Origin: Polaromonas sp.
GTDB taxonomy: Bacteria; Pseudomonadota; Gammaproteobacteria; Burkholderiales; Burkholderiaceae_C
NCBI GenBank assembly: GCA_043772355.1
Contig: JAYVGI010000171.1
Span: 1-58,934, forward strand
Length of the DNA stretch: 58,934 nucleotides
Reading direction: 5' to 3'
A model generated the notes under the pieces. That model was given only the letters and a program-made list of their open reading frames with translations, had not been told where the DNA came from and searched no databases. The position numbers and the translations under genes were made by a program. Shown one piece after another: positions 5,850 to 58,934 of the stretch (position 1 is the first letter of the stretch; each line of letters starts with the position of its first letter).

Positions 5850-6248
5850 TTAAGCGTGCTGCATTTCCAGGGATGCCAGCTTGTCGAGCTCGGCACAGAC
5901 ATCGGCAAAGCGCCCTGATACCACCATGCGGCCTGCGCGGTCGGCGGGCAGGGATGCGTCTACATTGCGTACCACACGCACGCGGTGCAGGGGCTTGGCG
6001 CTGATGCCGGGCTTTGTGATCGAGGAAGGGCGCGGGTGAGTGTGCCGGTAAGTGGTGCGACCCGCATGTCCCAAACCGCTGCGAGAGGCCTCACTGACGG
6101 AGGGCGCACGGGGTGCGTTGCTGGGCCATGCATTGGCGTGTGCGCGCGCAGGCGTGCGTATACCGGTGGGTTTGATGGTGCTGGCGTGTGGTGCAAAAAA
6201 CAGCACGACGGCTTGCACGGGCGCGACGAGTACGGACAAAAGATTCAT
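5850..6248 (-). CDS. Hypothetical small protein with N-terminal hydrophobic segment, co-oriented directly downstream of lexA
   Basis: 132-aa ORF. GGAGA lies 7 nt upstream of the ATG. Third codon positions are GC-rich. N-terminus MNLLSVLVAPVQAVVLFFAP. No family recognised. Confidence 0.4.
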   Translation of the reverse strand: MNLLSVLVAPVQAVVLFFAPHASTIKPTGIRTPARAHANAWPSNAPRAPSVSEASRSGLGHAGRTTYRHTHPRPSSITKPGISAKPLHRVRVVRNVDASLPADRAGRMVVSGRFADVCAELDKLASLEMQHA

Positions 6249-6323
6249 GCGGTATCTCCGATCTGGCAGCTTTTTTTCGGGATGTTGCGGGATTTTGCGA
6301 GATTCTGTAGTGGCAGCCAGCGT

Positions 6324-45241: not shown

Positions 45242-47906
45242 TTGCGCCGCCAAACGTGGTCACTATTCGGTGACGCACGCAAGGGCTTCGAAGGCCACAA
45301 AGTGACCTATGATCGAAACGGCAACCGTACCAGGGACACCACCTACGGCAACCAAGTCAGCCGAGGCGCCGATATCTATCTTGGCACCAACACCGCAGGC
45401 AACTTAGTCGCCTACACCTTGGAGAACTACGAGTCCAGCCGGTACAACAACCACTACACCATGGCCCTGGAGCGGAGCCGACTTTAACTTTGGCTACCAG
45501 CCGATCAACGGCAACTACCCCAGCGCCAGCGTCGGCAGCTACCAGGTAGCCACCGGCGACACCCTGCAAAGCATCGCCCAAGGGGCCTACGGCGACAGCA
45601 GCCTGTGGTACCGCATAGCGGATGCCAACGGATTAGCCAGCAACGCTGACCTGCGTGTGGGCCAAACCCTGAGCATCCCCAACCGGGTAGGCACCGTGCA
45701 CAACTACGGGGCCAACAGCGCCGCCGGGGGTGCCAGCGGTACCGGCAGCTTCAAACCCTATGACCCGAGCAAGGTGCAGGGGGACAGCACGCCCAACTTG
45801 CCCGCACCGCAGGCTGAAGACGGTGGCTGTGGCGGTTTGGGGCAGATACTGATCATCATTGTGGCGATTGTGGTTACGGTGGTGACCTATGGGGCAGCAG
45901 CCCAAGCCGGTGCCAGCCTCATCGTAGCCGGTGCAGTAGGCGGCGCAGCCGGTGCCATCGCCAGCCAAGCGGTGGCTATCGCCATCGGCCTGCAAGACGA
46001 CTTTAACTGGAAAGGCGTGGCCCTGGCCGCCATTGGTGGGGCCATCGGCGGCGGGCTGTCCACATATGCTCCACTAGGTGGGGCCGTCAACAGCACCGCC
46101 AACGTCATCGTGCGCGCTGCCGTAGGCAATGCAATGACCCAGGGCGTCGCCGTGGCCACCGGCTTGCAAGCCAAGTTTGACTGGAAGGGCGTGGCCATCG
46201 CCGCCGTAGGCGCAGGCTTAGGCAGCGCTGTGTCCGAGGGCTTGGGCGACAGCGTCATGCGCGACGACGACGGCAACGCCTTCCTGGATGCCAAAGGCAA
46301 CTTTGAGCGCTGGAAGGGCAGTGGCGTGATGGCCGAGCTGGGGCGCAGCGGCGACATCATCCGCAGCAGCCTGTCAGGCGCGGCGGCTGGCATTACCGCA
46401 GCCAGCATGCGCGGCGGGCGGGTTGACATCACACGCATCGCCTCGGACGCCTTCGGCAACGCCCTGGGCAATAGCTGGGGTGAGCAGATCAATGCCAGTG
46501 TGCAGGAGGGGAAACTGCGCGAGGTGAGTGCTGGGCAGCAGGGCACGGGGCCTTATTCGGCAAACGATTACCGCAATGGCATGGACATGGATAGTGATAA
46601 CTACAACCCAAGCCAAGCTTGGGGTACCAGTCAATCGATTGATCGAAGCGGTTTTTCTAGAACAAATGCACTCATGGCAGACAGTTCAAATCCATCGTTT
46701 GTGATGGATCTTCCACCCAGCGATGAGGAGCTCAATGCAAACGGTGAACGCCCCGGCCTTGTTGCTGGACCAGGCGTAGCCAAATCAGGGCCAGGTATCC
46801 GCGCCCGTAGCCAGGCTTTGATGACGCAATACTTGGATGCAGCTTATCTACCCGAAGGTCAAGAACGCCTGCGCGCACAACACGAAAGTTTATTGGGTAT
46901 TCGGCAACTGCTGGGTGAATATGACAGTAACCCCAAATACTTGCAAGACGAGCTGGCCAATATGCAGCAGATGGCCTCGGGAGGAAAGGGCTTAGTCGGG
47001 CAGCGTTTTGGTGGCACTTCTGCCGATCAGCCTTACAGCATGATTGAAGTGGCGGCTGGTTCGGTTCTGAATCAAAACGCTCTGGGTCTTGGCTCAATCA
47101 TGATGCCCTTGACCAGCAATGAATTCTCTTTCCGCCGCAATGGTGATGCCATGGGTGGATTCATGGCATTGCTGTCCATGGCGGATCGCGATGGTGTGAT
47201 TGATGGCTTACGCGACATTGGTAATCAAGAGGTCAATGCCTTTGGGCGTCCGATGAATGCCTTACAGTTTGCCGGCACTCGGGAATCGGCCGGTAGTGTG
47301 ATGATGATGCTTGGCACGAGCCCTGCGCTAGCTGCTGGGCAGTTTGCACGAGGTGTTGCCACCAGTAAAGCGATGGCAGCAGAGGCTTGGGTTCAGGGTG
47401 CTGCTAACAGGTATTTGTCGCAGGTGGACGTGCGGGGGAGTTCGTTCTTGGCGGATCAGGCGTTGTCCGTTGGTAGTTCAGTACGAGTTCTCCCGAAGAA
47501 CTGGCAGGGACCTTCTGCGGGTACGGGGCGTTTTGTTGGTGAAAAAGGCAACTCTGAATTTGTTCTTAGCAGCAGCGCAGCAAAAGAGTTGAATCTTCCA
47601 CAAGGTACGACCGTTCGATTTGTGAATGGTACACCTGACTTCGGACCACAAACTATCAAGACACCAGCGGGAACTTCCGGTAGCTTCAGCGTAGAAGAAT
47701 TAACGTATAGTCGTGGTAACGACGCTACAGCCACAGTTAGGCACTTAGCCAATGAGTCAAACATGACACCAAGTCAGGTGAGAGCGTGGTTGAGGGAGCA
47801 AGACGTTCGCATGCACCACTTCCAGGGCAACGTAATGCAACTGGTACCAACGCGGTTGCATCAAGTTGTGCACCATACGGGCTCGGTTGGAATGAGTGGA
47901 AAGTAA
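45242..47906 (+). pseudogene. Orphan polymorphic-toxin module 1: YD-repeat fragment joined by deletion and frameshift to LysM, TM/Gly-zipper region and an HNH/EndoVII-fold (WHH/GH-E-like) nuclease C-terminus
   Basis: 45242-45476 (frame 2) reads ...YDRNGNR...AGNLVAYTLENYESSRYNNHYTMAL. From about 45474 (frame 0, open from 45408, no ATG) it reads GADFNFGYQPINGNYP..LysM..GCGGLGQILIIIVAIVVTV..., near-identical at nucleotide level to 53520-54330. About 350 nt (equivalent to 53585-53935) are missing at the junction. The C-terminus is ...RMHHFQGNVMQLVPTRLHQVVHHTG. Confidence 0.75.
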
Positions 47907-47909
47907 AAA

Positions 47910-48359
47910 ATGTCGATCAACAGCATACTTATCAAAAAGATTCAGCCTATTTATTCGCAGTATGAGCCTGCCAGCGAACTTGAAGTGGTAGAGGCCGAAC
48001 GCGTTATAGGCGCGAGATTCCCTGAAGTGTTACGTGATCTCCAGCTTCACTACGGCCGTCTAGGGTTTGCTGGTGATACACGTATCTGGTGCGATGAGTT
48101 GAGCGACCAATTGTCTCCATTTACAGTTTTTGGATGCAAAGGTGACAAAGGTAATTTGGTAATGGATTACACCGACCATCCTGATTTGCAAGCTCGAAAA
48201 CTAGTTCCATTTGCGGATGATTTGTTAAACAATAGGTTTGTATTTGACGTAACAAGTGAAGCCATCTATTTTGTAGACTACTGTCGAACTCGTGCAATTT
48301 ACCCGTTAGCAAGTTCGCTGAGCGAATTCTTTGATCGAATCGAACTCATCCCCGAGTAG
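47910..48359 (+). CDS. SMI1/KNR4 (SUKH-1) family immunity protein
   Basis: 149 aa, starting 4 nt after the toxin stop. The N-terminal pattern ...SELEVVEAERVIGARFPEVLRDLQLHYG... and the overall size fit SUKH immunity proteins. Markedly lower GC than its surroundings. Confidence 0.75.
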   Translation: MSINSILIKKIQPIYSQYEPASELEVVEAERVIGARFPEVLRDLQLHYGRLGFAGDTRIWCDELSDQLSPFTVFGCKGDKGNLVMDYTDHPDLQARKLVPFADDLLNNRFVFDVTSEAIYFVDYCRTRAIYPLASSLSEFFDRIELIPE

Positions 48360-49783
48360 TAATGCCTTTGGCAATGCGTTGGGGAGCAGCTGGGGTGAGC
48401 AGATCAATGCCAGTGTGCAAGAGGGGAAACTGGCGCAGGTGAATGCGGAGAACCAGCGGGAGGCCAACCGGTTTGCTTCGGGGGCGCAGGCGAATGCGGC
48501 GTATGCCAGCAGCAATCGCTTTGCCGCGATAGATGCGATGGCCGCAGGCGCTTCGGGTTATGAGTTCACGCCTGATATGAGCCCAGAAAACGCCAGGGCG
48601 CTGCGCCAGACCATGGGATTGAATGTCAATGATCTGAATGAGCCGGTGTTGGTGGCGGGGGGCGAGGGTTTTGTCGTTAGGGAGCGGTAAATTGCATGTG
48701 TTGCCGGTTGGTCGAACAACCTTTTTGGACGATACCGGCGACTCTTCCACCCTTGATCAGCTCAAAAAGCTTCAATCAGAAATAGGCGCACTGAAAAACG
48801 CACAACGACTGCGTAACGAAAAAGCCAATACAGAGCTGGGCTTGAAACTTGACCGTCTATCGCCGATTACGAAGGGCAGCTACGGCGATGAAATGCCCTT
48901 TGACGTAGGCTATGTAGACAACACCACGCCGCAGCCCGGTGCCTCCAGCGGCACGGGCCTGAGCCTGAGCTCGCGCACAGGCTTTAACCTGCAAAGCAGC
49001 GGCCAAGGTCTGTATACCAACGGTGGGCCACTGGACAACTTTGGCAGAGGCTTTAGCGGTAGCAATAGCTGGAGCGTGCTGGAGGGCGATCAACCCATCT
49101 CCTACACCATAGGCAGCGGCCTGCGCTCTGGGCTGGGCCTGTTCGTCGGCGAAGAAGACTTCCACCAAGCAGGCCAAGCCTGGCAACGCGGCGAGTATGG
49201 CTCGGCATCAATGTACGCGCTGCGAGGCGCTGGCGCGGCTGGATTGACAGTGGCGACAGCGGGGCAGTTTGCACTGGCTAAGGCTGGGATGTCGGGGGTG
49301 GTGGGCGGGACGGGGTTGCGGGCTAGTGCAGCTTCCGGAGGTGTGGCCCATCCGCTTGCAGGCATGGCTCCAACGGACGTTATCAATTCGGTGCAGCAAT
49401 TAGGCCTTCAAACGGGGCGCGACGAATTGCTCTTATGGTCGGGCTTAGGCCGAGGCCGTGAAGGCATCATTCGCTCTCAGGAGTACGCAGCACAGAATGG
49501 TGGCCGTACATTAGAGATGACACCAGGAGGCAAATGGCTAGACAGTATGGATCTATATGGCGCGCATTCGCCCTTTACTCGTTCTGAAGCGGATCATATA
49601 TGGGGCTCAGTGTCTAAATCGTTAGTCGAACAAGCTAGCGGCCAAGTGCGCGCGTTGCAAGGCCAAGTAAGGCCAACTAGCGTATTTCGCCAGATAGAAT
49701 TACCCGCGCTGCAAGCAAACCCTAACATCTTGGGATTAGACCCTGTACGACTTAAACCTGCTTATCAATTTGGAAGAAACTAA
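48360..49783 (+). pseudogene. Orphan polymorphic-toxin module 2 (junction motif + linker + ADP-ribosyl-cyclase/CD38-like C-terminal domain), frameshifted
   Basis: Begins directly after the immunity stop with (D)AFGNALGSSWGEQINASVQEGKL; there are 32 identical nt to 46473-46504. The frame-1 stop is at 48688-48690, and reading continues in frame 2 (ORF 48638..49783). A G6 run lies at 48657-48662. The C-terminus is LLLWSG...RTLEMTPGG...HIWGSVSKSLVEQASGQV...SVFRQIELP. Confidence 0.7.
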
Positions 49784-49784
49784 T

Positions 49785-50084
49785 ATGTTTACTTGGCTCA
49801 ATAAACAAGGTGTGCGCAGTGAACGCGGATTCGAAGTTCAATTTACTGGGCGTTTCGATGCCGAGTATCGGGAAGAAAGAAAATGCGTTTCTTTCCAAGT
49901 TGAGGCTGGTTTGAGTGGTGGGCTGCAATGCATCATTGTTGACCCTCACATTTTCGAGCACTGGGATGGCGGCGCCGTAGTTGAAAATATCTCGCCACTT
50001 CAACAATCTCAGATGTTTCAAAATCTGCGAGAAGCTATGGAATTTCAAGGATTAAAGTTAGTGGTGGAAAAAGCCGAGAGCTGA
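49785..50084 (+). CDS. Putative immunity protein for module 2
   Basis: The ATG lies 2 nt after the toxin stop. 99 aa, low GC: MFTWLNKQGVRSERGFEVQFTGRFDAEYREERKCVSFQVE... Assignment is by position only. Confidence 0.5.
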   Translation: MFTWLNKQGVRSERGFEVQFTGRFDAEYREERKCVSFQVEAGLSGGLQCIIVDPHIFEHWDGGAVVENISPLQQSQMFQNLREAMEFQGLKLVVEKAES

Positions 50085-50180: not shown

Positions 50181-50336
50181 GGACCACGAGGGTCACAAGG
50201 ACCACGAGGGTCAAGTCTCCCATTTCCCATTTTGATGCAGTCAACTCGCTATCAGCATAAGCGCTGCAAATCATTTCCTACACCGACTACGCTATTTATT
50301 ACGTAGCTTCTCCCACAATATTTTAAATGGCTACAA
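50181..50336 (+). repeat. Island composite repeat, type A (gaccacgagggtc tandem + gtcaagtctcccatttcccattt + ...gcataagcgctgcaa... + ATAGCTGCT-type unit)
   Basis: 50205-50336 aligns with 57266-57400 along its whole length. Confidence 0.75.
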
Positions 50337-50953: not shown

Positions 50954-51352
50954 CTAAGCTGGCCAAATACTGTGCACCTGCAGGTCTGTCACTCGCTTGA
51001 AATCATCGACATTACCCGTCAATAAGCCAATACCTTGCACAATGGCGGACGCGGCAATGACTGCGTCGGGCAGCTTCAAGCCAAACTGCTTGCGTATGCG
51101 TATGGTGTCTTGCACCACTGCCTCAGTCAATGGTATCTCGTGCAACTTGCTCAGCAACTGGCCCATTTGCTGCAACGTGATGTCGCTGTAGCCCTTCCAG
51201 CCCAGCACCTCAATGCGCGTGATCACGCTGATGTAGGCATTTTTGGCATCCATCGCTTGTCGCACAGATGCCTTCACCTGGGCAGACAGGGTGCCCTGTA
51301 AGTTGTAAATCAAAACATTGGTGTCTAGCAGCAAAGGCATAGAGTGAGCCAT
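50954..51352 (-). CDS. vapC: PIN-domain toxin (VapC-like)
   Basis: ORF 50954..51376. The ATG at 51352 overlaps the antitoxin stop (TAATG). MAHSMPLLLDTNVLIY... and ...DAVIAASAIVQGIGLLTGNVDDF show a typical PIN acidic-residue pattern. Confidence 0.85.
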   Translation of the reverse strand: MAHSMPLLLDTNVLIYNLQGTLSAQVKASVRQAMDAKNAYISVITRIEVLGWKGYSDITLQQMGQLLSKLHEIPLTEAVVQDTIRIRKQFGLKLPDAVIAASAIVQGIGLLTGNVDDFKRVTDLQVHSIWPA

Positions 51353-51609
51353 TACACACCCAGGGGTCGATCCCATTCAGCACGCATAGCGGCTAGCTGG
51401 GCATCAATATCTGCGCGGCTGGCGTGGCCTAAAGCACCGCTTAGCTGTTCAAACAGGCTGTAGGCATCGGACGGTGCATTTTGTGCCGGTGTAGTTAGCG
51501 CATTAGTGTCTACCACCACGATGACTTCATGGCGTTCTGGCAGGGCAGGCGGCTGTCCTAGCCAAATAAGCTGTGATCCTTCAAGCTGTGCTTTGTAAGT
51601 CTGCAACAT
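51352..51609 (-). CDS. Cognate antitoxin (DUF104-like N-terminus)
   Basis: 85 aa. MLQTYKAQLEGSQLIWLGQPPALPERHEVIVVV... Translationally coupled to the PIN gene. Confidence 0.6.
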   Translation of the reverse strand: MLQTYKAQLEGSQLIWLGQPPALPERHEVIVVVDTNALTTPAQNAPSDAYSLFEQLSGALGHASRADIDAQLAAMRAEWDRPLGV

Positions 51610-51740: not shown

Positions 51741-52018
51741 ACAAGGGTCAGGTCTTGAAATGCAACATCGCAGGACCACGAGGGTCGGACCACGAGAGTC
51801 AAGTCTCCCGTTTCCCATTTCTACGTAATCAGTTTTCGACTGATGCGCAAGCATCTGGTCAATCCATCTTGACTGAGAGCAGTCAAAAATCGAGGTTAGA
51901 TGAAGTTAAACCTGATACCCAACGCATCTTCGTTGGCATGTAATAGTGCAGCTAAAGACGATACCGTATTTGCTACTAACTCCATAGCTTTTCCCGCTAT
52001 ATTCTATTGGGCTACAGC
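51741..52018 (+). repeat. Island composite repeat, type B (full-length reference copy)
   Basis: acaagggtcaggtcttgaaatgcaacatcg + gaccacgag tandem + gtcaagtctcccgtttcccatttctacgtaatcag... + aaaaatcgaggttagatgaagttaaacctgatacc... + ATAGCTGCT-type unit (51967-52018). Its halves recur separately at 57140-57260 and 56866-56994. Confidence 0.75.
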
Positions 52019-52139: not shown

Positions 52140-52562
52140 CTAGTGGTGAGCAGGCTCTTGCAGCAACAGCGCTGTGAACCCCGCTTGGCTAAAGTGGTGG
52201 TCAGCGGCCAAAGCGTGTGTGATGCCTCGCTCGCGCATCAGCTCAAAACTGGCGCAGTCGCACAGGCTCCAGTCTTTGTCATGGTGCTGCGCAAACAAGG
52301 CAATGGCTTTGTCCCGCAGGGTCGCGGTGATGGGTGCGGTTTCAATCGACAGGTCGTGCAGTAAGGTGTGGATGATGGCGCTGCCCACAGCGCGGTTAGC
52401 CGCTTTAGAAAACGCCGCGCCCACCTCAAACACCACTGCCTCGGTGGTCAATAGCGGGCAACGCTCACGCTGTATCTGGCTTTGCAGCGCAGCCGCTTGC
52501 GCATGGTAGGTGTCTTTCGGCGAGAACAGGGCAATCAAAAACCCTGTATCTAAAAACCACAT
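52140..52562 (-). CDS. vapC: PIN-domain toxin (VapC-like)
   Basis: 140 aa. MWFLDTGFLIALFSPKD... The start overlaps the antitoxin stop by 1 nt. Confidence 0.85.
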   Translation of the reverse strand: MWFLDTGFLIALFSPKDTYHAQAAALQSQIQRERCPLLTTEAVVFEVGAAFSKAANRAVGSAIIHTLLHDLSIETAPITATLRDKAIALFAQHHDKDWSLCDCASFELMRERGITHALAADHHFSQAGFTALLLQEPAHH

Positions 52563-52777
52563 CAGCGCAGCACCTGTTCAAAGTTGACCGAGTAGTCGGC
52601 AGGCGCATCAATGCGCATGGTGGAGGCCAGCTCCCACAGGCTAGGCACGGTGGTGTTGGCAGCCTGCGCGGGCCGCACAATCACCTCAACCTCTTCGCCA
52701 GGCACCAAGCGCGCGTCTACAAGATGCACGGCATGGTGTGCATCGACCCGGATTCGTTCGCTAATCACAGCATTCAT
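52562..52777 (-). CDS. Cognate antitoxin (DUF104-like)
   Basis: 71 aa. MNAVISERIRVDAHHAVHLVDARLVPGEEVEVIVRP... Coupled to the PIN gene. Confidence 0.6.
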   Translation of the reverse strand: MNAVISERIRVDAHHAVHLVDARLVPGEEVEVIVRPAQAANTTVPSLWELASTMRIDAPADYSVNFEQVLR

Positions 52778-53120: not shown

Positions 53121-56100
53121 GGAGGCTACTATAGTAGCACCACCGAGTCCAGCCAGCCCCTCTACGGCCCCAGCTACAGCGCCACCCAAGGCCAGGCCAC
53201 CGAGACCTACAGCTACGACGCGCTGAACCGCCTGAGCACCGTCACCCGCGACGGCACCTTGGTAGACACCCGCGTCTACGACGGCGCAGACCGCGTGGTG
53301 CAGACCGGCCCGGCTGGAACACTGAGCCAAGCCTACGTCAACGCCCTGTACGGCACCAACGCCGCAGGCAGCGCCAACCCCGGCAACGGCTCAGAGACCC
53401 GCGTCAACCGCTTTGACGACAACGGCCGCTTGCTCACCCAAGTCGTCTACAGCGCAGACAACACCCTGAGAAACGTCATCAACTATCAAGGCGGCTACGA
53501 CGGCGCAGGCAACCTGACTGCCTACACCCTGGAGAACTACGAGTCCAGCCGCTACAACAACCACTACACCATGGCCCTGCAGCGGGCAGGCACCTACCAA
53601 CAAGCCTCCACCAGCGGCACCAGCACCCTGTTCACCCCCGGCACCAGCCGCAGCCACTACGACGTCAACGGCAACCTCACCGCCATCACCGACGACACCA
53701 AAGGCGAGAACAACCGCAGCTTTGTCAACGACATCAGCGGCAAAGCCCTGCAGGTCAGCCAAAGCGGCAATGTGCAGCGCCAACTGGTGGTGGGCGGCGA
53801 AGTATTGGCCCGCTACGGCGTGGGCATTGACGAAGTCAACCCCCGCGACTCCAGCGGCAACCCCAACTTCGCCCCCATCGGCACCAGCAGCGGGGGCAGC
53901 GTCATCGGCGCCATCCCCGGCCAGGTGAGAAACGGGGCCGACTTTAACTTTGGCTACCAGCCCATCAACGGCAACTACCCCAACGCCAGCGCAGGCAGCT
54001 ACCAGGTAGCCACTGGCGACACCCTGCAGACGATTGCCCAAGGGGCCTACGGCGACAGCAGCCTGTGGTACCGCATAGCGGATGCCAACGGCCTGAGCGG
54101 CAACAGCGACCTGCGCGTGGGCCAAACCCTGAGCATCCCCAACCGGGTAGGCACTCTGCACAACTACGGGGCCAACAGCGCCGTGGGGGGTGCAGGCAGT
54201 ACCGGCAGCTTCAAGCCCTATGACCCGAGCAAGGTGCAAGGCGACAGCACGCCGAACCTGCCTGGGGCCAGTGGCGGGGAGGATGATGGCTGTGGCGGGA
54301 TGGGGCAGATCTTGGTGATCATTGTGGCGATTGTGGTCACGGTGTATACGGCGGGTGCGTTTGCGGCAGCCAGTGGTGGCCTTACGGGTGCGGCGGCAGG
54401 GGCCACCGCTGCTGCCGCAGGTGGTGGAGCCGCAGGCACCTTTGCTGCTGGTGCAGCCGCATTGGGCGGCACCTATGGCGCAGGCGTTGCAGTGGCGGCA
54501 GGTGTGATCGGCGGCATCGCAGGCTCGGTGGTCAGCCAAGGCGTAGGCATCGCCATCGGCGTACAAACCGAGTTCAGCTGGAAAGGCGTAGCCCTGGCCG
54601 CCATTGGCGGTGCCGTCTCGGGTGGGCTAGCAGGAAGTGGCGCATTTGCCGGTGCGGGCCTGGGCAGCGTCATCACCCGCGCAGCGGTAGGCAACGCCCT
54701 GACTCAGGGCATAGCCGTTGTCACCGGCTTGCAAGACAAATTCAGCTGGAAAGGCGTGGCCGCCGCAGCCGTAGGCGCAGGCGTGAGCTTTGGGGTGAGC
54801 GAAGCCCTGAGCGCAGCCAACAACGGTGCGGGTGCCTTTAGCAGCTTGGGCGAGGTTGGCGGCAAGCTGGCCCGCGCCAGTCTGACAGGCTTTGCCGCAG
54901 GCCTGGCCACCGCAGCCGCACGCGGCGGCAGGGTCAGCATCACGCAGGTGGCCACCGATGCCTTCGGCCAGGCGCTGGGCGAGAGCTTTAAGGACGGGCT
55001 GGTGAGTGCGGGGCAGCAGGAGATGGCGCTACGGGATGCGCACAGTGAGAACCAGCGGCAGGCGAACCGCTTTGCTTCGGGGGCGGCTACAAACTTGGCC
55101 AATTCACCTGGCGCTGCAAGCCAAGCGACTGCGCTGGCGCAGGATGAGTTGTTGGGTGGGGGCAATATACGAGCCAGAGGACTCACGGCAGCGGACTTCG
55201 CCAGCGGCACCCAGTTTGACGACGGTGCAGGTGCAATGAACCAAGACTGGGAAGACAGAATGGCTGTGAACTACGGTTCAAAGCCGCAAAACGCACTTTA
55301 TCGTCCTGGTGAGGAAGATGCGGCTCTTATCCAAGTCGCTGATAAATCCAATGGTAAATCGATACCCTTAGACACTGAGAGCGCGAAATTTGGAATTGTG
55401 CGGGATAAACCAGGCGAATACGTCAAGCAAGTGAAAGACCTCCTGAAATCTGCTCCAGATAGTGCCTCCACAGCTGTAACAGAGGAGTTGGTCGAGAAAT
55501 ACGGAAAAGACCTTAAGGGACTCGTGAAGCAGGGAGTTGGAAGTTCGATGACTGGTTCGTCAAAGGCCGACGGGTTTGCTAACAATAGCTACGACATTCG
55601 ACCATACCCTGAAGAAGCGTTGAACAATACAAGCAATTTAACGTACCATAAGTATGGGCTCATAACTTATCTTGGCCCGGTTGATCAAGAGCTGGGTATC
55701 GATAAAGAATTTGTGCGTAAAGAGGTACTTGAAAAGCGCTACGGTTTTCCCGGCAAGAACCTTGAGCCTGCGCCTGCAAACATCGGTGGAAATTCAGTAG
55801 TATTTGCAGTTCCTGTAGGCAACGTGATTCCTTCTTCTAAACTAGATAATCCAAATAACTATACCTACCCAATAGGCGTAATTACTCAGGAGCGCGTGCC
55901 CGACGGCATTGTTAATATTACGACTGAAAAACATGATGTGTATCCTGGTACGATTAGGCGCACAGTTGTTGAGGTCGACGGCCATTTATTTATGTATACG
56001 AGTGGTGCTGGCGAGAACCGTTATAACAACGAAGGACTCAACGTTCGGCAACCAGCAGAGGGCCTTGCTGGGCAGGGTTTTGCACAACTGGTGACCCGAT

Positions 56101-56201
56101 ACGCAGCGGCTGCCGGTAACGATAACTATGGGCCGCTGGCTTTCAGAGCGCTGGATCGACAAGCGGTTGGGTATCTGAACACGATAAGGGCTAAACGTTG
56201 A
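53121..56201 (+). CDS. Polymorphic toxin, longest copy (YD repeats - LysM - Cys/TM helix - Gly/Ala-rich FxWKGVA repeats - DAFGQALG junction - unassigned C-terminal domain); 5'-truncated, no ATG/RBS
   Basis: The frame is open from 53121 (stop TGA at 53118-53120). Homologous YD sequence (YSYDALNRLSTVTRDGTLVDTRVYDGADRVVQT) begins about 53200, directly after dispersed repeats. The ORF track starts at a TTG at 53259. LysM: YQVATGDTLQTIAQGAYGDSSLWYRIADANGLSGNSDLRVGQTLSIP. Whether it is expressed is uncertain. Confidence 0.75.
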   Translation, partial: GGYYSSTTESSQPLYGPSYSATQGQATETYSYDALNRLSTVTRDGTLVDTRVYDGADRVVQTGPAGTLSQAYVNALYGTNAAGSANPGNGSETRVNRFDDNGRLLTQVVYSADNTLRNVINYQGGYDGAGNLTAYTLENYESSRYNNHYTMALQRAGTYQQASTSGTSTLFTPGTSRSHYDVNGNLTAITDDTKGENNRSFVNDISGKALQVSQSGNVQRQLVVGGEVLARYGVGIDEVNPRDSSGNPNFAPIGTSSGGSVIGAIPGQVRNGADFNFGYQPINGNYPNASAGSYQVATGDTLQTIAQGAYGDSSLWYRIADANGLSGNSDLRVGQTLSIPNRVGTLHNYGANSAVGGAGSTGSFKPYDPSKVQGDSTPNLPGASGGEDDGCGGMGQILVIIVAIVVTVYTAGAFAAASGGLTGAAAGATAAAAGGGAAGTFAAGAAALGGTYGAGVAVAAGVIGGIAGSVVSQGVGIAIGVQTEFSWKGVALAAIGGAVSGGLAGSGAFAGAGLGSVITRAAVGNALTQGIAVVTGLQDKFSWKGVAAAAVGAGVSFGVSEALSAANNGAGAFSSLGEVGGKLARASLTGFAAGLATAAARGGRVSITQVATDAFGQALGESFKDGLVSAGQQEMALRDAHSENQRQANRFASGAATNLANSPGAASQATALAQDELLGGGNIRARGLTAADFASGTQFDDGAGAMNQDWEDRMAVNYGSKPQNALYRPGEEDAALIQVADKSNGKSIPLDTESAKFGIVRDKPGEYVKQVKDLLKSAPDSASTAVTEELVEKYGKDLKGLVKQGVGSSMTGSSKADGFANNSYDIRPYPEEALNNTSNLTYHKYGLITYLGPVDQELGIDKEFVRKEVLEKRYGFPGKNLEPAPANIGGNSVVFAVPVGNVIPSSKLDNPNNYTYPIGVITQERVPDGIVNITTEKHDVYPGTIRRTVVEVDGHLFMYTSGAGENRYNNEGLNVRQPAEGLAGQGFAQLVTRYAAAAGNDNYGPLAFRALDRQAVGYLNTIRAKR

Positions 56202-56224: not shown

Positions 56225-56800
56225 ATGATGCCTCTCGACAAAAAAACTGTCACGGTATTGGTTTGTCTTTTTTCGTTTATTTGGACTGGATGTATGGCAC
56301 TTGAACAAAAGTCAACTGATTCGGCGATCAAGCTCGTCAAACGCATGAAAATTGAGGAGATGATTATTTTTGGTTTTAAAAGACCATTTCTAGTTGGCCT
56401 TCAAGCGGTAACAAAAGAAAATTTAGATGCGCAACGTTATATGGCATGCCTCGACAGTGTAGATCGCACCACGATGAGAGCTGGTATTGCGGAGAGAATT
56501 GTTGAAAAGTTTACTGCTTCAGAGCTTTTAGATGCTCTGCAGTTTTACGACAGTGAGGCAGGTGAGAAATTTGTTTTGCGTACAAACGCGCTAGTTCTGA
56601 GGGAGATGGGTATTTCTCAAACTCCGAATCTACCTGTGGAAGAGTTAGATGACATTGCGAGGAGTCGAGTTGAGAGTTTTAAGCGTAGTCCTGTAGGAAA
56701 AAAAATTGAGGCCGAAGGATTTTTCAGTTCCTCAGAATACCTCCTACCAGGGCTTCAAATCATGCAAAAAAGAATTGAGTGGTGCCAATCGCAACCATAA
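56225..56800 (+). CDS. DUF2059-like lipoprotein, putative periplasmic immunity protein for the 53121..56201 toxin
   Basis: ORF 56198..56800. The ATG at 56225 follows aaggaaa. Signal and lipobox MMPLDKKTVTVLVCLFSFIWTGC. The segment EKFTASELLDALQFYDSEAGEKF resembles the DUF2059 signature (f.T.eEL..l..FY.Sp.G.K). Low GC. Confidence 0.55.
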   Translation: MMPLDKKTVTVLVCLFSFIWTGCMALEQKSTDSAIKLVKRMKIEEMIIFGFKRPFLVGLQAVTKENLDAQRYMACLDSVDRTTMRAGIAERIVEKFTASELLDALQFYDSEAGEKFVLRTNALVLREMGISQTPNLPVEELDDIARSRVESFKRSPVGKKIEAEGFFSSSEYLLPGLQIMQKRIEWCQSQP

Positions 56801-57028: not shown

Positions 57029-57137
57029 GCAGCACCAGCAGCAACGGCGTAGTCACCGGCACCATCCCCGGCCAAACGCGCAACGGGGCCGACTTCAACT
57101 TTGGCTACCAGCCCATCAACGGCAACTACCCCAGCAG
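57029..57137 (+). pseudogene. Toxin-gene fragment of about 110 nt (…GTIPGQTRNGADFNFGYQPINGNYPSS)
   Basis: Aligns with 53880-53990 of the long copy. It is bounded on both sides by island repeats. Confidence 0.7.
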
Positions 57138-57139
57138 CC

Positions 57140-57400
57140 GCGAGGGTCAAGTCTCCCGTTTCCCATTTCTACGTAATCAGTTTCGACTAATGCGCAAGCA
57201 TCTGCCAATCCATCTTCACTGAACGCAGTCAAAAATCGGGGTCAAATGAAATTAAACCGGCCAGGAGAGTCAAGTCTCCCATTTCCCATTTCCCATTTTC
57301 ATGCAGTCAACTCGTTATCAGCATAAGCGCTGCAAGTCATTTTTCACACCGAAAACGCTATTTATTACGTAGCTGCTCTCGCTGTATTTCAAAGGTAAGC
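57140..57400 (+). repeat. Island composite repeats: type B 5' half (57140-57260) followed by type A (57263-57400)
   Basis: gagggtcaagtctcccgtttcccatttctacgtaatcag...aaaaatcggggtcaaatgaaattaaaccgg, then ccaggagagtcaagtctcccatttcccatttcccatttt...ctatttattacgtagctgctctcgc. Confidence 0.75.
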
Positions 57401-57652: not shown

Positions 57653-57700
57653 ATCTATTTTCTCAATTGCGTGCTTTTTTCATAGCCTTTGCTCAATCCC

Positions 57701-57901
57701 TTACCCCATCGCCTCCACCAGCTCAATCTCGCGTTGGAGCAAATCATTGACCAAGGCCGACAAGTCAATGCCCTTGGCCTGCGCTTTGGCAGCCAGGTAG
57801 CCTTGCACCCGCTCGTCCAGATACACGGGGAGTTGAAATACCGCGTTAGCTTGGTAGAACTTGCCGCGTTGGCCTTTTGAAAAGTCGTAATGTTCGTTCA
57901 T
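57701..57901 (-). CDS. brnA: BrnA-type antitoxin (RHH/CopG-like)
   Basis: 66 aa. MNEHYDFSKGQRGKFYQ...VYLDERVQGYLAAKAQAKGIDLSALVNDLL, downstream of brnT in the toxin-first order typical of BrnTA. Confidence 0.8.
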   Translation of the reverse strand: MNEHYDFSKGQRGKFYQANAVFQLPVYLDERVQGYLAAKAQAKGIDLSALVNDLLQREIELVEAMG

Positions 57902-57946
57902 GCTATCACCTTAAAAGTGGGTACTTTGACAACCGTTTTAGCTACC

Positions 57947-58273
57947 TTATCGCGGGGCCTGCTCATAGTCTTGTCGCTCTTGCTTATCCGCCTTGCGGGC
58001 GGAGATTAGCCGCACCTCAATGTGCTGGGCATCTAGCTGCACAAAGGTGTGTACCACCACCAATGTTTGGCCATTTTCAGCCTGCCCCATGCTCACCCAG
58101 CGCTCTTCCTGGTCGCTATGCTCATCATCGTAAATCGTTAGGGCCAAGGGGTCATGCAGGACAGTGCTAGCCAACTGAAATGTCACCCCATCGTGCTTTT
58201 GCACGTTGGTGCGCTCCTTGTTGGAATCCCATTCAAAACGGTACAGCGGCCTGGGTGTCATGCTCGCCATCAT
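57947..58273 (-). CDS. brnT: BrnT-family (DUF497) toxin
   Basis: 108 aa. ...YRFEWDSNKERTNVQKHDGVTFQLASTVLHDPLALTIYDDEHSDQEERWVSMG...LVVVHTF...IRLISARKADKQERQDY is the typical BrnT pattern. Confidence 0.85.
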   Translation of the reverse strand: MMASMTPRPLYRFEWDSNKERTNVQKHDGVTFQLASTVLHDPLALTIYDDEHSDQEERWVSMGQAENGQTLVVVHTFVQLDAQHIEVRLISARKADKQERQDYEQAPR

Positions 58274-58335
58274 ACCCGCCTAAGAATTCGATTTCAAAAC
58301 CGATCTGCTGGATCAGCCCGAAGAAATAGACCCTC

Positions 58336-58859
58336 AGCACCAGCCGCAGCCGGTACGATGTCAACGGCAACCTGACAGCCGTCACCGACGACAACCAGCC
58401 AGCCAACAACCGCAGCCTCATCAACGACCTGAGCGGCAAAGCCCTGCAGGTCAGCCAGCAAGGCAACGTGCAGCGCCAACTGGTCGCGGGCGGCGAGGCA
58501 CTGGCCCGCTACGGTGTGGGCATTGACGAAGTCAACCCCCGGGACAGCAGCGGCAACCCCAACTTCGCCCCCATCGGCACCAGCAGCGGGGGCAGCGTCA
58601 TTGGGGCCATCCCCGGCCAAACGCGAAACGGCGCTGACTTTAACTTTGGCTACCAGCCCCTAAACTCAAATCATCACGGCAACTACCCCAGCGCCAGCGC
58701 ACGCCCAACCTGCTGCCAGCGCCTTGTGACGGCGGGGGCGGGGGTTGTGGAGCGATGGGGCAGATCTTGGTGCTAATTGTGGCCATTGTGGTTACGGTGC
58801 TGACTTATGGGGCAGCCACGGCCGCGCTTGGTACAAGCTTAGGGCCTGTTAACAAATAA
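58336..58859 (+). pseudogene. Toxin-gene fragment 3 (YD/pre-LysM segment fused by deletion to the Cys/TM helix; LysM missing; frameshifted; premature stop)
   Basis: Reads ...SRYDVNGNLTAVTDDNQPANNRSLINDLSGKALQVSQQGNVQRQLVAGGEALARYGVGIDEVNPRDSSGNPNFAPIG...GADFNFGYQPLNSNHHGNYPSASA. In another frame it then reads ...CGAMGQILVLIVAIVVTVLTYGAATAALGTSLGPVNK*, with the stop at 58857-58859. Confidence 0.7.
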
Positions 58860-58934
58860 CATAAGCAATATCAACCCGATAGAATTTGATAATTCCAATC
58901 ACCATGGAACTCATGTCGCACGAGCTTGATAGCC

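Follow-up and report, generated by a model that had tools for sequence, protein, structure and literature searches.

The window analysed here is a stretch of 58,934 nt from Polaromonas sp. (contig JAYVGI010000171.1, assembly GCA_043772355.1), in which repeat analysis revealed at least four related degenerate orphan modules (M1-M4) at 45.3-58.9 kb, with deletions and frameshifts. In its most extended form, the module consists of YD-type repeats, a LysM domain, a hydrophobic Gly/Ala-rich block and the motif DAFGxALG, after which a variable C-terminal region follows. Judged by sequence comparison, the segment from LysM to DAFGxALG is a conserved pre-toxin module of a distinct and widespread family of giant YD-repeat polymorphic toxins. 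The block was present in 2,292 representative clusters (clusters at 50% identity) at E<=1e-30 in an exhaustive profile search, and the full-length relatives were YD-repeat proteins of 3,000-8,200 aa. It is considered probable that these copies are orphans of a new pre-toxin delivery module and that the giant proteins are exported by a flagellar-type type III secretion system (T3SS).

Extent and Parts of Cassette M3

Cassette M3 was examined in the open reading frame (ORF) at 53259-56201 on the + strand (980 aa, TTG start), to which the residue numbers of M3 refer. An earlier note on the window had proposed an order of YD repeats, LysM, Cys/transmembrane (TM) helix, duplicated FxWKGVA Gly/Ala-rich region and DAFGxALG, and all of these parts were located in this ORF. 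The parts of M3 and the gene 3' of it are as follows:

53137..53930, +: 5'-truncated YD-repeat remnant of ~265 aa, aligning to the last YD repeats of full-length relatives
54000..54140, +: LysM domain, aa 248-294 (Pfam PF01476, E=1.3e-7)
54141..54290, +: Pro-rich linker, aa 295-344, consensus FKPYDPSKxxGDTxPNLP with near-invariant P, Y and P, predicted to be disordered (predicted local distance difference test score, pLDDT, <50)
54291..54368, +: GGCGG with Cys345, followed by TM1, a strongly hydrophobic helix at aa 347-370, from conservation, hydropathy and the AlphaFold2 (AF2) helix
54369..54479, +: Gly/Ala-rich spacer, aa 371-407, with low column conservation and low pLDDT
54480..54635, +: repeat A, helix/QTEFSWK turn/helix hairpin, aa 408-459, with FSWKGVA at 54573-54593 (aa 439-445)
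54660..54821, +: repeat B, helix/QDKFSWK turn/helix hairpin, aa 468-521, with FSWKGVA at 54741-54761 (aa 495-501)
54840..54956, +: amphipathic helix at aa 528-566, just ahead of the junction, consensus GxAAGxxxAxxRGGRVxxQQVAT (conserved; AF2)
54957..54980, +: DAFGQALG demarcation motif, aa 567-574, the last conserved element ahead of the variable toxin
54981..56201, +: variable C-terminal region, a presumed toxin by its position, which is analogous to that of toxin domains in homologues
56228..56800, +: presumed immunity gene, a DUF2059 protein of 190 aa (Pfam; position 3' of M3)

The YD-type repeats of M3 included YDGADRVVQT (aa 7-16), FDDNGRLLTQ (aa 52-61) and YDVNGNLTAI (aa 134-143), and the remnant scored 20.2 bits with Pfam RHS_repeat, slightly below the cut-off. 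LysM was modelled by AF2 with a pLDDT of ~95 and the element order E-H-H-E (beta-alpha-alpha-beta fold). In the Foldseek search of the model against the PDB, the best matches spanned only ~50 residues and were weak matches to LysM proteins (best E 1.6e-2); the helical block had no match below E ~2. For the residues around 330-590, for which the earlier note had advised a structure prediction, the model gave helices, and the helical part was left without a structural match. The sequence DDGCGGMGQILVIIVAIVVTVYTAGA at aa 342-367, which includes Cys345, was the sole segment with a Kyte-Doolittle hydropathy above 2, and the maximum for TM1 was 2.62. Cys345 was near-invariant (C121 of family alignment A3, conserved to at least 90%). 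It was ruled out as a lipobox cysteine because it sits before the hydrophobic helix and not after it. A role as the first residue of a HINT domain was also ruled out, as no HINT profile matched and a separate downstream HINT protein occurred only in Undibacterium. The Gly/Ala-rich stretch at aa 340-570 contained 25.5% Ala and 22.9% Gly. The C-terminal region of M3 had no match in Pfam, NCBIfam or the PDB sequences.

The homology of M3 began at ~53137, directly after the in-frame stops TAG TAG at 53131-53136, and in-frame YD-type sequence, ETYSYDALNRLSTVTRDG, extended upstream of the ORF start as far as this position. There was no ATG or GTG start between the in-frame stops and the ORF. No sigma-70-like site was found upstream of M3, and the window contained no sigma-28-type site (the CTAAAC-N17-GA(T/A/C) box typical of the full-length genes). 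M3 is not a complete gene, as it starts abruptly after stops and has neither such a start nor a promoter-like site. The long copy of the earlier note was therefore itself a 5'-truncated fragment. M3 appears to be a silent, promoter-less spare copy of the tail end of a giant toxin gene.

Conservation and Predicted Structure of the LysM-to-DAFG Block

The conservation profile was derived from 71 aligned homologues, and invariance was read from alignment A3. Besides LysM and the Pro-rich consensus, the profile showed conservation of GGCGGxGxI..VVAVVVTVxTAGA at TM1, of AGAxGGAAGSIASQxVGxAIGxQDxFSWKxVALxAIGGGV and of RAAxxNAxTQGIxVxTGLQxxFxWxxVAASAVGAGVG. The last conserved sequence was GxAAGxxxAxxRGGRVxxQQVATDAFGNALGxS at the junction, and conservation collapsed right afterwards. 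Each hairpin was centred on QxxFSWKxVA. F271, W273 and V276 of repeat B were invariant in A3, as were D, F and G of the junction motif. The form DAFGNALG was present in 54 of 76 homologues. A comparison of the family sub-alignments with hhalign identified the two FxWK halves as a duplication (probability 98.8%, E=8e-17).

When 167 proteins were retrieved and clustered, 165 of them fell together by the 230 aa that precede the junction, and the sequences past it gave 119 clusters. This difference, together with the fact that M2 begins exactly at the motif, indicates that DAFGxALG acts as a demarcation, as had been proposed from the window alone. Toxin domains at the C-terminus of the homologues included WHH, Colicin-DNase, Tox-SHH, EndoU, LHH and RNase-A-like domains. 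Through their homology in the YD, LysM, helix and DAFGxALG parts, a cassette could recombine onto an expressed full-length gene and thereby swap its toxin.

AF2 predicted helices at aa 347-377, 408-433, 441-459, 468-488, 497-521, 528-554 and 561-613, the later ones with pLDDT of 72-91. With one strong TM helix and two hairpins, the number of membrane crossings is odd. In the topology drawn from AF2 and hydropathy, both QxxFSWK turns were placed on the same side, and K/R-rich sequence followed the last helix.

Two other readings of the block were weighed against these data. That the Gly/Ala-rich stretch is a mere flexible low-complexity linker without specific function, an alternative that the earlier note had named, accords with its 48% Gly plus Ala and with the weakly conserved and poorly predicted spacer at aa 371-407. 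This reading is contradicted by the conservation data, namely the invariant Q, G, F, W, V, D and F residues, the duplication, the confidently predicted helices and the wide occurrence of the block, and is hardly credible. The second reading takes the Gly/Ala-zipper block as a pore-forming toxic element common to all members and the variable C-terminus as an accessory second toxin. Glycine-zipper helices form channels in several toxins; the 230-aa block contained 15 GxxxG and 54 small-xxx-small-xxx-small motifs and was far better conserved than the C-terminal region. However, no conserved immunity gene for the invariant block was found beside the giants, each variable C-terminal region being paired with a presumed one of its own, and orphans such as M2 discard the block and retain the junction with the C-terminal region. 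A pore-forming role of this kind is regarded as improbable.

Full-Length Giant Parents

The following giants were read as full-length relatives:

Ralstonia solanacearum: 4,442 aa
Burkholderia ubonensis: 4,897 aa
Eleftheria terrae: two proteins, 5,105 and 5,026 aa
Undibacterium KW1: 8,221 aa
Massilia: >4,900 aa, with many DUF4214 repeats

Many representatives from the exhaustive profile search were 3,000-7,181 aa long and carried the module close to their C-terminal end. A family of ~1,000-aa proteins was considered and rejected, as the word-indexed search, which gave only proteins of <=1,037 aa, had returned orphans and partial calls of giants. The giants had a common N-terminus, MVAIVxGNGLGLxxxSxxxLGxxG..GRxGExVYVNAATGNLVxQ..DE.L...LRTYN, followed by a DUF6531-like segment at aa 40-117. 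When the GTDB species genomes were scanned with this N-terminus (three-sequence alignment), 75 loci were found in beta-, gamma- and alpha-proteobacteria. The N- and C-terminal parts belong to one family, as 32 of the 51 giants picked by the C-terminal module carried the N-terminal motif and 8 loci picked by the N-terminus had the LysM module within 10 kb. The remaining giants picked by the module started inside YD repeats.

Several members departed from this layout. In the main gene of Massilia sp. GER05 (L001 ~6220-6260), an in-frame stop lay inside LysM (GDERL*YLIADANG), and the centre consisted of many DUF4214 repeats, not only YD repeats, which indicates that the family trunk is variable. 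In short members (L061 10001-13249; L084 969-3080), the N-terminal motif and the LysM module were only ~400-800 aa apart; hence, thousands of YD-repeat residues are not essential for linking both ends. Genes with YcaO and nitroreductase domains and DUF2846 genes recurred near giants in unrelated metagenomic contigs (L089 1748-3970; L092 28203-30563; L091 15604-16062; L092 27123-27578).

Flagellar-Type T3SS Cluster Beside Some of the Giants

The giant gene of R. solanacearum lay directly downstream of a complete second flagellar-type cluster. The cluster ran from FliQ, FliR, FlhB, FlhA, FlgF, FlgG, FlgA, FlgH, FlgI, FlgB, FlgC, FliE and FliF through a short FliG-like protein, FliH, FliI, a coiled-coil FliJ-like protein, FlgD, FlgE, a FliM-like protein, FliN, FliO and FliP, and ended with a sigma factor and two tetratricopeptide repeat (TPR) proteins of 382 and 194 aa. 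Flagellin, FlgK/L, FliD and MotA/B were absent from this full cluster. The same cluster end was found directly upstream of the B. ubonensis giant. Of the ~76-83 giant loci, 15 had FliP within 10 kb upstream, 13 had FlgE, 15 had the sigma factor and 22 had TPR proteins; 16 loci had a protein of 110-170 aa there that belonged to no known family and was 132 aa long in R. solanacearum. Locus L092, which had been picked independently by the C-terminal module, showed the full cluster pattern, and L090 had the TPR gene only.

FlhA of the cluster was 54-76% identical between genera, 42-44% identical to canonical Ralstonia FlhA and ~33% identical to SctV. Nine plasmids carried cluster-type FlhA. Seven of them carried a family member, directly adjoining the cluster where this could be read; of the other two, one had a truncated cluster and one had a cluster but no giant nearby. 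A cluster adjoined ~15 of 76 loci, which came from three proteobacterial classes, and was absent near most paralogues. The catalogue of homologues and their neighbours, which the earlier note had suggested with type V, VI and VII secretion systems (T5SS, T6SS and T7SS) in mind, did not favour any of these as the route and pointed to a flagellar-type T3SS instead.

Two observations concern the cluster itself. In R. solanacearum YC45 (CP011998.1; L095 1147-16876), the cluster broke off after a FliK-like gene and lacked hook genes, a sigma factor gene, TPR genes and a giant gene alike, which suggests a joint loss. A 1,671-aa 'FliJ family protein' was encoded on both Undibacterium plasmids, KW1 with the giant and YM2 with the cluster (L011 38107-40228 / L013 820-5835; L094 1-2793), and may be a further large component or substrate of the same system.

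Sigma-28-Type Promoter of the Giant Genes

Unbiased k-mer counts in the 250 nt upstream of the giants singled out CTAAAC, on which the sequences were then anchored. Relative to this anchor, G, A and T occurred at +23 to +25 in 42, 40 and 30 of 44 sequences. From these fixed positions the motif TAAA-N15-(c/g)(c/t)(G/c)GAT(A)(a/t) was derived, which matched the FliA consensus TAAA-N15-GCCGATAA with equal spacing. The pattern CTAAAC-N17-GA(T/A/C) had 67 matches in 3.03 Mb, and 48 of these were on the coding strand and <=300 nt upstream of a giant. They came from 48 of 82 loci, and no cluster adjoined many of those 48. The sigma factor of the cluster had FliA/WhiG as its best family match (E=2.5e-28, below the curated cut-off).

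Among the 19 other matches, ~10 pointed divergently at the upstream gene, 99-220 nt away. Divergent boxes were observed in L005 (~9236, - strand), L014, L017, L036, L047, L065, L085, L089 and L090, and those in L005, L014, L017, L036 and L090 aimed at a TPR gene. According to this second box, the giant and the TPR gene appear as a divergent co-regulated pair.

Relation to Known Pre-Toxin, Rhs and CDI Proteins

The LysM domain was the only clear match in the profile searches that the earlier note had called for. No Pfam family was matched by aa 329-594 of M3 or the M1 equivalent even at E<=10 (PT-TG, PT-HINT, PT-VENN and DUF637 included), and the whole ORFs matched none of these pre-toxin families at E<=0.1. 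On the window copies, NCBIfam gave LysM only, and the hydrophobic block and junction had no match at E<=0.1; no pre-toxin family was thus assigned to either part. The earlier note had reported neither the Rhs motif PxxxxDPxGL nor the CdiA motif VENN, and the motif searches of the window copies and three full-length relatives bore this out. PxxxxDPxGL was absent from all of them by regular expression, and there was no VENN/(Q/E)LYN-type motif in the pre-toxin region, the sole match being LYVN at residue 121 of the Eleftheria giant. There was no PT-VENN match, and neither a TPS domain nor FHA repeats were matched in Pfam. The giants matched no Rhs-associated core model; NF041261 scored 305 bits against a cut-off of 2000, on the repeats only. 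The architecture was therefore non-canonical, as the note had held: the YD repeats came with neither the Rhs-associated core nor the autoproteolysis motif, and VENN, TPS and FHA elements were absent as well.

The general definition of polymorphic toxin systems was taken from Zhang et al. (2012; PMC3482391), in which LysM is mentioned only as a generic adhesion domain in some toxins. The family showed a conserved trunk with a variable C-terminal domain from a fixed boundary, downstream presumed immunity genes, and orphan cassettes (M1-M4 in the window; Massilia). The open-access full-text literature yielded no account of the family, its junction motif or the cluster, and an earlier description elsewhere is possible. 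A polymorphic toxin with orphans is a known kind; what is new is its pre-toxin module, its giant scaffold and the flagellar-type route that is considered probable.

It was also considered that these proteins are ordinary toxins of the Rhs/T6SS type or YD toxins of the WapA/Tc type, in which LysM and the hydrophobic stretch are a lineage decoration and delivery is by T6SS or Sec. YD repeats were abundant (31 RHS_repeat stretches with E=1.7e-227 in the R. solanacearum giant, and TEN_YD-shell matches in the giants), DUF6531, which is frequent at the start of Rhs shells, matched at the N-terminus, and the polymorphic C-terminal regions, immunity genes and orphan arrays are Rhs-like. Against this, the Rhs-associated core and PxxxxDPxGL were lacking, the full-length proteins had no PAAR, VgrG, Sec signal peptide or TcB/SpvB domain, and no T6SS genes were found in any annotated neighbourhood of family genes examined. 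Instead, the giants had a different N-terminus, a sigma-28 promoter and a flagellar-type neighbourhood. An ordinary Rhs/T6SS or WapA/Tc toxin is accordingly regarded as very improbable.

Proposed Mechanism

According to the proposed mechanism, the giant would be a late substrate of the flagellar-type T3SS and would be exported N-terminus first, and TPR proteins may shield the hydrophobic block inside the producer. In the periplasm of the target cell, LysM would bind peptidoglycan, and TM1 and the two Gly/Ala-zipper hairpins (five crossings) would insert in the target inner membrane. Five crossings would place the C-terminal toxin on the cytoplasmic side, with the QxxFSWK turns periplasmic and the K/R-rich segment inside. 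As the earlier note had suggested, the block may serve peptidoglycan docking and membrane insertion or translocation. In its full form, the proposal is that the giants are dedicated late substrates of a non-motility flagellar T3SS lineage that delivers polymorphic toxins to neighbours, with LysM and the five-helix block as a self-contained device for peptidoglycan docking and inner-membrane crossing. Such a lineage would keep the basal body, L/P rings, hook, its own FliA-like sigma and TPR chaperones, and would have no filament or stators. This full form is put forward tentatively and is held at somewhat less than even odds.

Several points weigh against the delivery proposal. To our knowledge, export of a 4,000-8,000 aa substrate with TM segments by a flagellar gate would be unprecedented. 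Only ~20% of the giant genes adjoined a cluster, and Eleftheria, Undibacterium KW1 and several others did not. The sigma-28 promoter is a sign of co-regulation with flagellar-type late genes and not of T3SS export. When the 190-aa TPR protein was searched by profile against the PDB, all matches were to generic or designed TPR proteins. LysM also fills structural roles, and several of its closest (weak) Foldseek matches were baseplate proteins of contractile injection systems and phages. The AF2 model had a predicted template modelling score (pTM) of 0.34, and its helix packing is unreliable; only aa 347-370 and 408-433 were clearly TM-grade by hydropathy, the other helices being marginal. Finally, the cassettes of the window may be dead remnants, as the window contained no full-length gene or secretion cluster.

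The same segment could instead anchor the protein in the envelope of the producer, for surface retention, secretion arrest or as an adhesin anchor. Many proteins anchored in the envelope have LysM beside one strong TM helix, only one helix of the block was strongly hydrophobic, and the module always stood just before the toxin, as does the retained FHA-2/pre-toxin region in CdiA. However, insertion of TM1 in the producer would leave LysM cytoplasmic, since there is no Sec signal and the giant N-terminal part lies upstream; a T3SS route skips the producer periplasm; and the duplicated hairpins were more conserved than a simple anchor requires. Anchoring in the producer is judged unlikely.

Comparison with Known Delivery Systems

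Bacteria compete in large part by means of polymorphic toxin systems, and each of the known delivery scaffolds (Rhs/T6SS, CdiA/T5SS, LXG/T7SS, MafB and WapA) is characterised by its own pre-toxin architecture and secretion route. With the Rhs/YD toxins (T6SS Rhs effectors, WapA and Tc-toxin TcC), the giants shared the YD repeats, the DUF6531-like start, the C-terminal polymorphic toxin with its immunity gene, and downstream 5'-truncated orphans with a conserved pre-toxin part. They differed in lacking the core/autoprotease motif, the PAAR/VgrG linkage and a signal peptide. They were also 3-6x longer, carried LysM and a helical block between repeats and toxin, and had another N-terminal motif, promoter type and gene neighbourhood. 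CdiA of T5SS contact-dependent inhibition (CDI) is likewise a giant modular protein with a membrane-interacting region just upstream of the toxin and a short motif at the switch from conserved to variable sequence, which is kept by orphans (cdiA-CT at VENN; M2 at NAFGNALG). In contrast to CdiA, the giants had no TPS domain, FHA repeats or CdiB partner. Their motif was DAFG(N/Q)ALG, and their upstream region consisted of LysM and alpha-helical Gly/Ala zippers, whereas FHA-2 of CdiA is a beta structure.

The T6SS prePAAR effectors with Eag chaperones (Tse6, Rhs1) also carry hydrophobic helices of their own, which are thought to aid inner-membrane crossing, and have a small chaperone gene adjacent; the candidate counterpart in the giants is the co-regulated TPR protein. 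Their helices, however, are N-terminal beside PAAR and those of the giants stand directly before the toxin, the chaperone family is Eag/DUF1795 and not TPR, and the secretion system is different. The hydrophobic T3SS translocators SctE/SctB (IpaB, YopB), whose chaperones are TPR proteins of class II, resemble the giants in the T3SS-family machinery, the TM-hairpin substrate and an adjacent TPR protein of ~190 aa. Unlike the translocators, the giants are YD toxin substrates beside a flagellar-type cluster (FlgE hook, FlgH/I rings, FlhA nearer flagellar FlhA than SctV). Their TPR protein matched generic TPR structures only, and it is not claimed to be a T3SS class II chaperone. With flagellar class III genes (flagellin, FliA/sigma-28), the giant genes shared the TAAA-N15-GCCGATAA-like promoter with equal spacing, a FliA-like sigma encoded beside them, and a position downstream of hook and export genes; the product is a YD toxin of 3,000-8,200 aa and not an axial filament protein. 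The full Ralstonia cluster differed from motility flagella in the genes found missing above (flagellin, FlgK/L, FliD and MotA/B).

A further large class is defined by the block. At 50% identity, this class comprises more than 2,000 clusters, from beta-, gamma- and alpha-proteobacteria; its members are labelled in databases only as 'LysM peptidoglycan-binding domain-containing protein' and include some of the largest bacterial proteins. If the delivery proposal is true, the flagellar T3SS family would join the systems of contact-dependent antagonism, as a route beyond T5SS, T6SS and T7SS, and secondary flagellar clusters without filament and motor genes would be explained. The DAFGxALG junction, FxWK hairpins, Cys345, N-terminal motif, TPR genes and sigma-28 box provide testable handles.

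Other Cassettes and Their Surroundings in the Window

The modules of the window appear to form an orphan toxin/immunity array, in which each module has its own variable C-terminal presumed toxin and M1-M3 each have a presumed immunity gene. A similar orphan layout was found in Massilia, with orphan arrays 3' of the main gene. Besides M3, the array contained the following features:

45290..47906, +: orphan M1, with a frameshifted YD remnant, LysM, TM1, two hairpins, DAFGNALG and a different C-terminal region
47910..48359, +: presumed immunity gene of M1, SMI1/KNR4 (SUKH family; Pfam PF09346, E=5e-9)
48364..49783, +: orphan M2, beginning exactly at the junction motif NAFGNALG, with a third C-terminal region split over two ORFs (repeat family D10)
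49770..50084, +: presumed immunity gene of M2 by its position 3' of M2, 104 aa, with no family match
50954-51609, 52140-52777 and 57700-58273: interleaved toxin-antitoxin genes (VapBC-type, BrnT-type)
57032..57147, +: stray fragment of the pre-LysM region (repeat analysis, D3)
58330..58934, +, running off the window end: orphan M4, with a YD remnant, LysM deleted and a frameshift into the CG(A/G)MGQILV TM1 segment

In M1, LysM was at ~45540-45680, TM1 at ~45834-45905 and DAFGNALG at 46446-46469, and M1 and M3 were 91% identical in DNA over 45473-45772. The same order of parts had been proposed for M1 as for M3. The order from LysM to the junction was intact (45474-46469), and the YD remnant is frameshifted by a deletion of 347 nt corresponding to 53586-53932 of M3. 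The C-terminal region of M1 was unlike that of M3, with a weak WHH nuclease match, and the PDB sequence search of the M1 C-terminus gave no match. In M4, LysM was lost by a deletion between YPSASA and the CGAMGQILV helix.

The first ~50 aa past the junction were mosaic (46449-46541 in M1 and 48364-48456 in M2; aa 595-612 of M3, ~55041-55094). M2 had NSWGEQINASVQEGKL in common with M1 and then ENQR(Q/E)ANRFASGA in common with M3, which suggests that recombination also occurred just downstream of DAFGxALG.

Of the toxin genes between the cassettes, two were of the PIN (VapC-like) kind and had a small partner gene upstream, and one was of the BrnT type. At 50-52 kb and 56-58 kb, the GC content fell to 0.49-0.51. 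From 43.8 kb up to its end, the window resembled an accessory island, beside an aldo-keto reductase gene; no tRNA gene that could mark an island boundary was found in the window. An intergenic element of ~110 nt occurred four times between the cassettes, at 50202-50327, 51790-51912, 57138-57258 and 57261-57393. It opened with the palindromic GACCACGAGGGTC, present once or twice, continued with AAGTCTCCC(A/G)TTTCCCATTT, and could be a REP-like element, a recombination site or a terminator.

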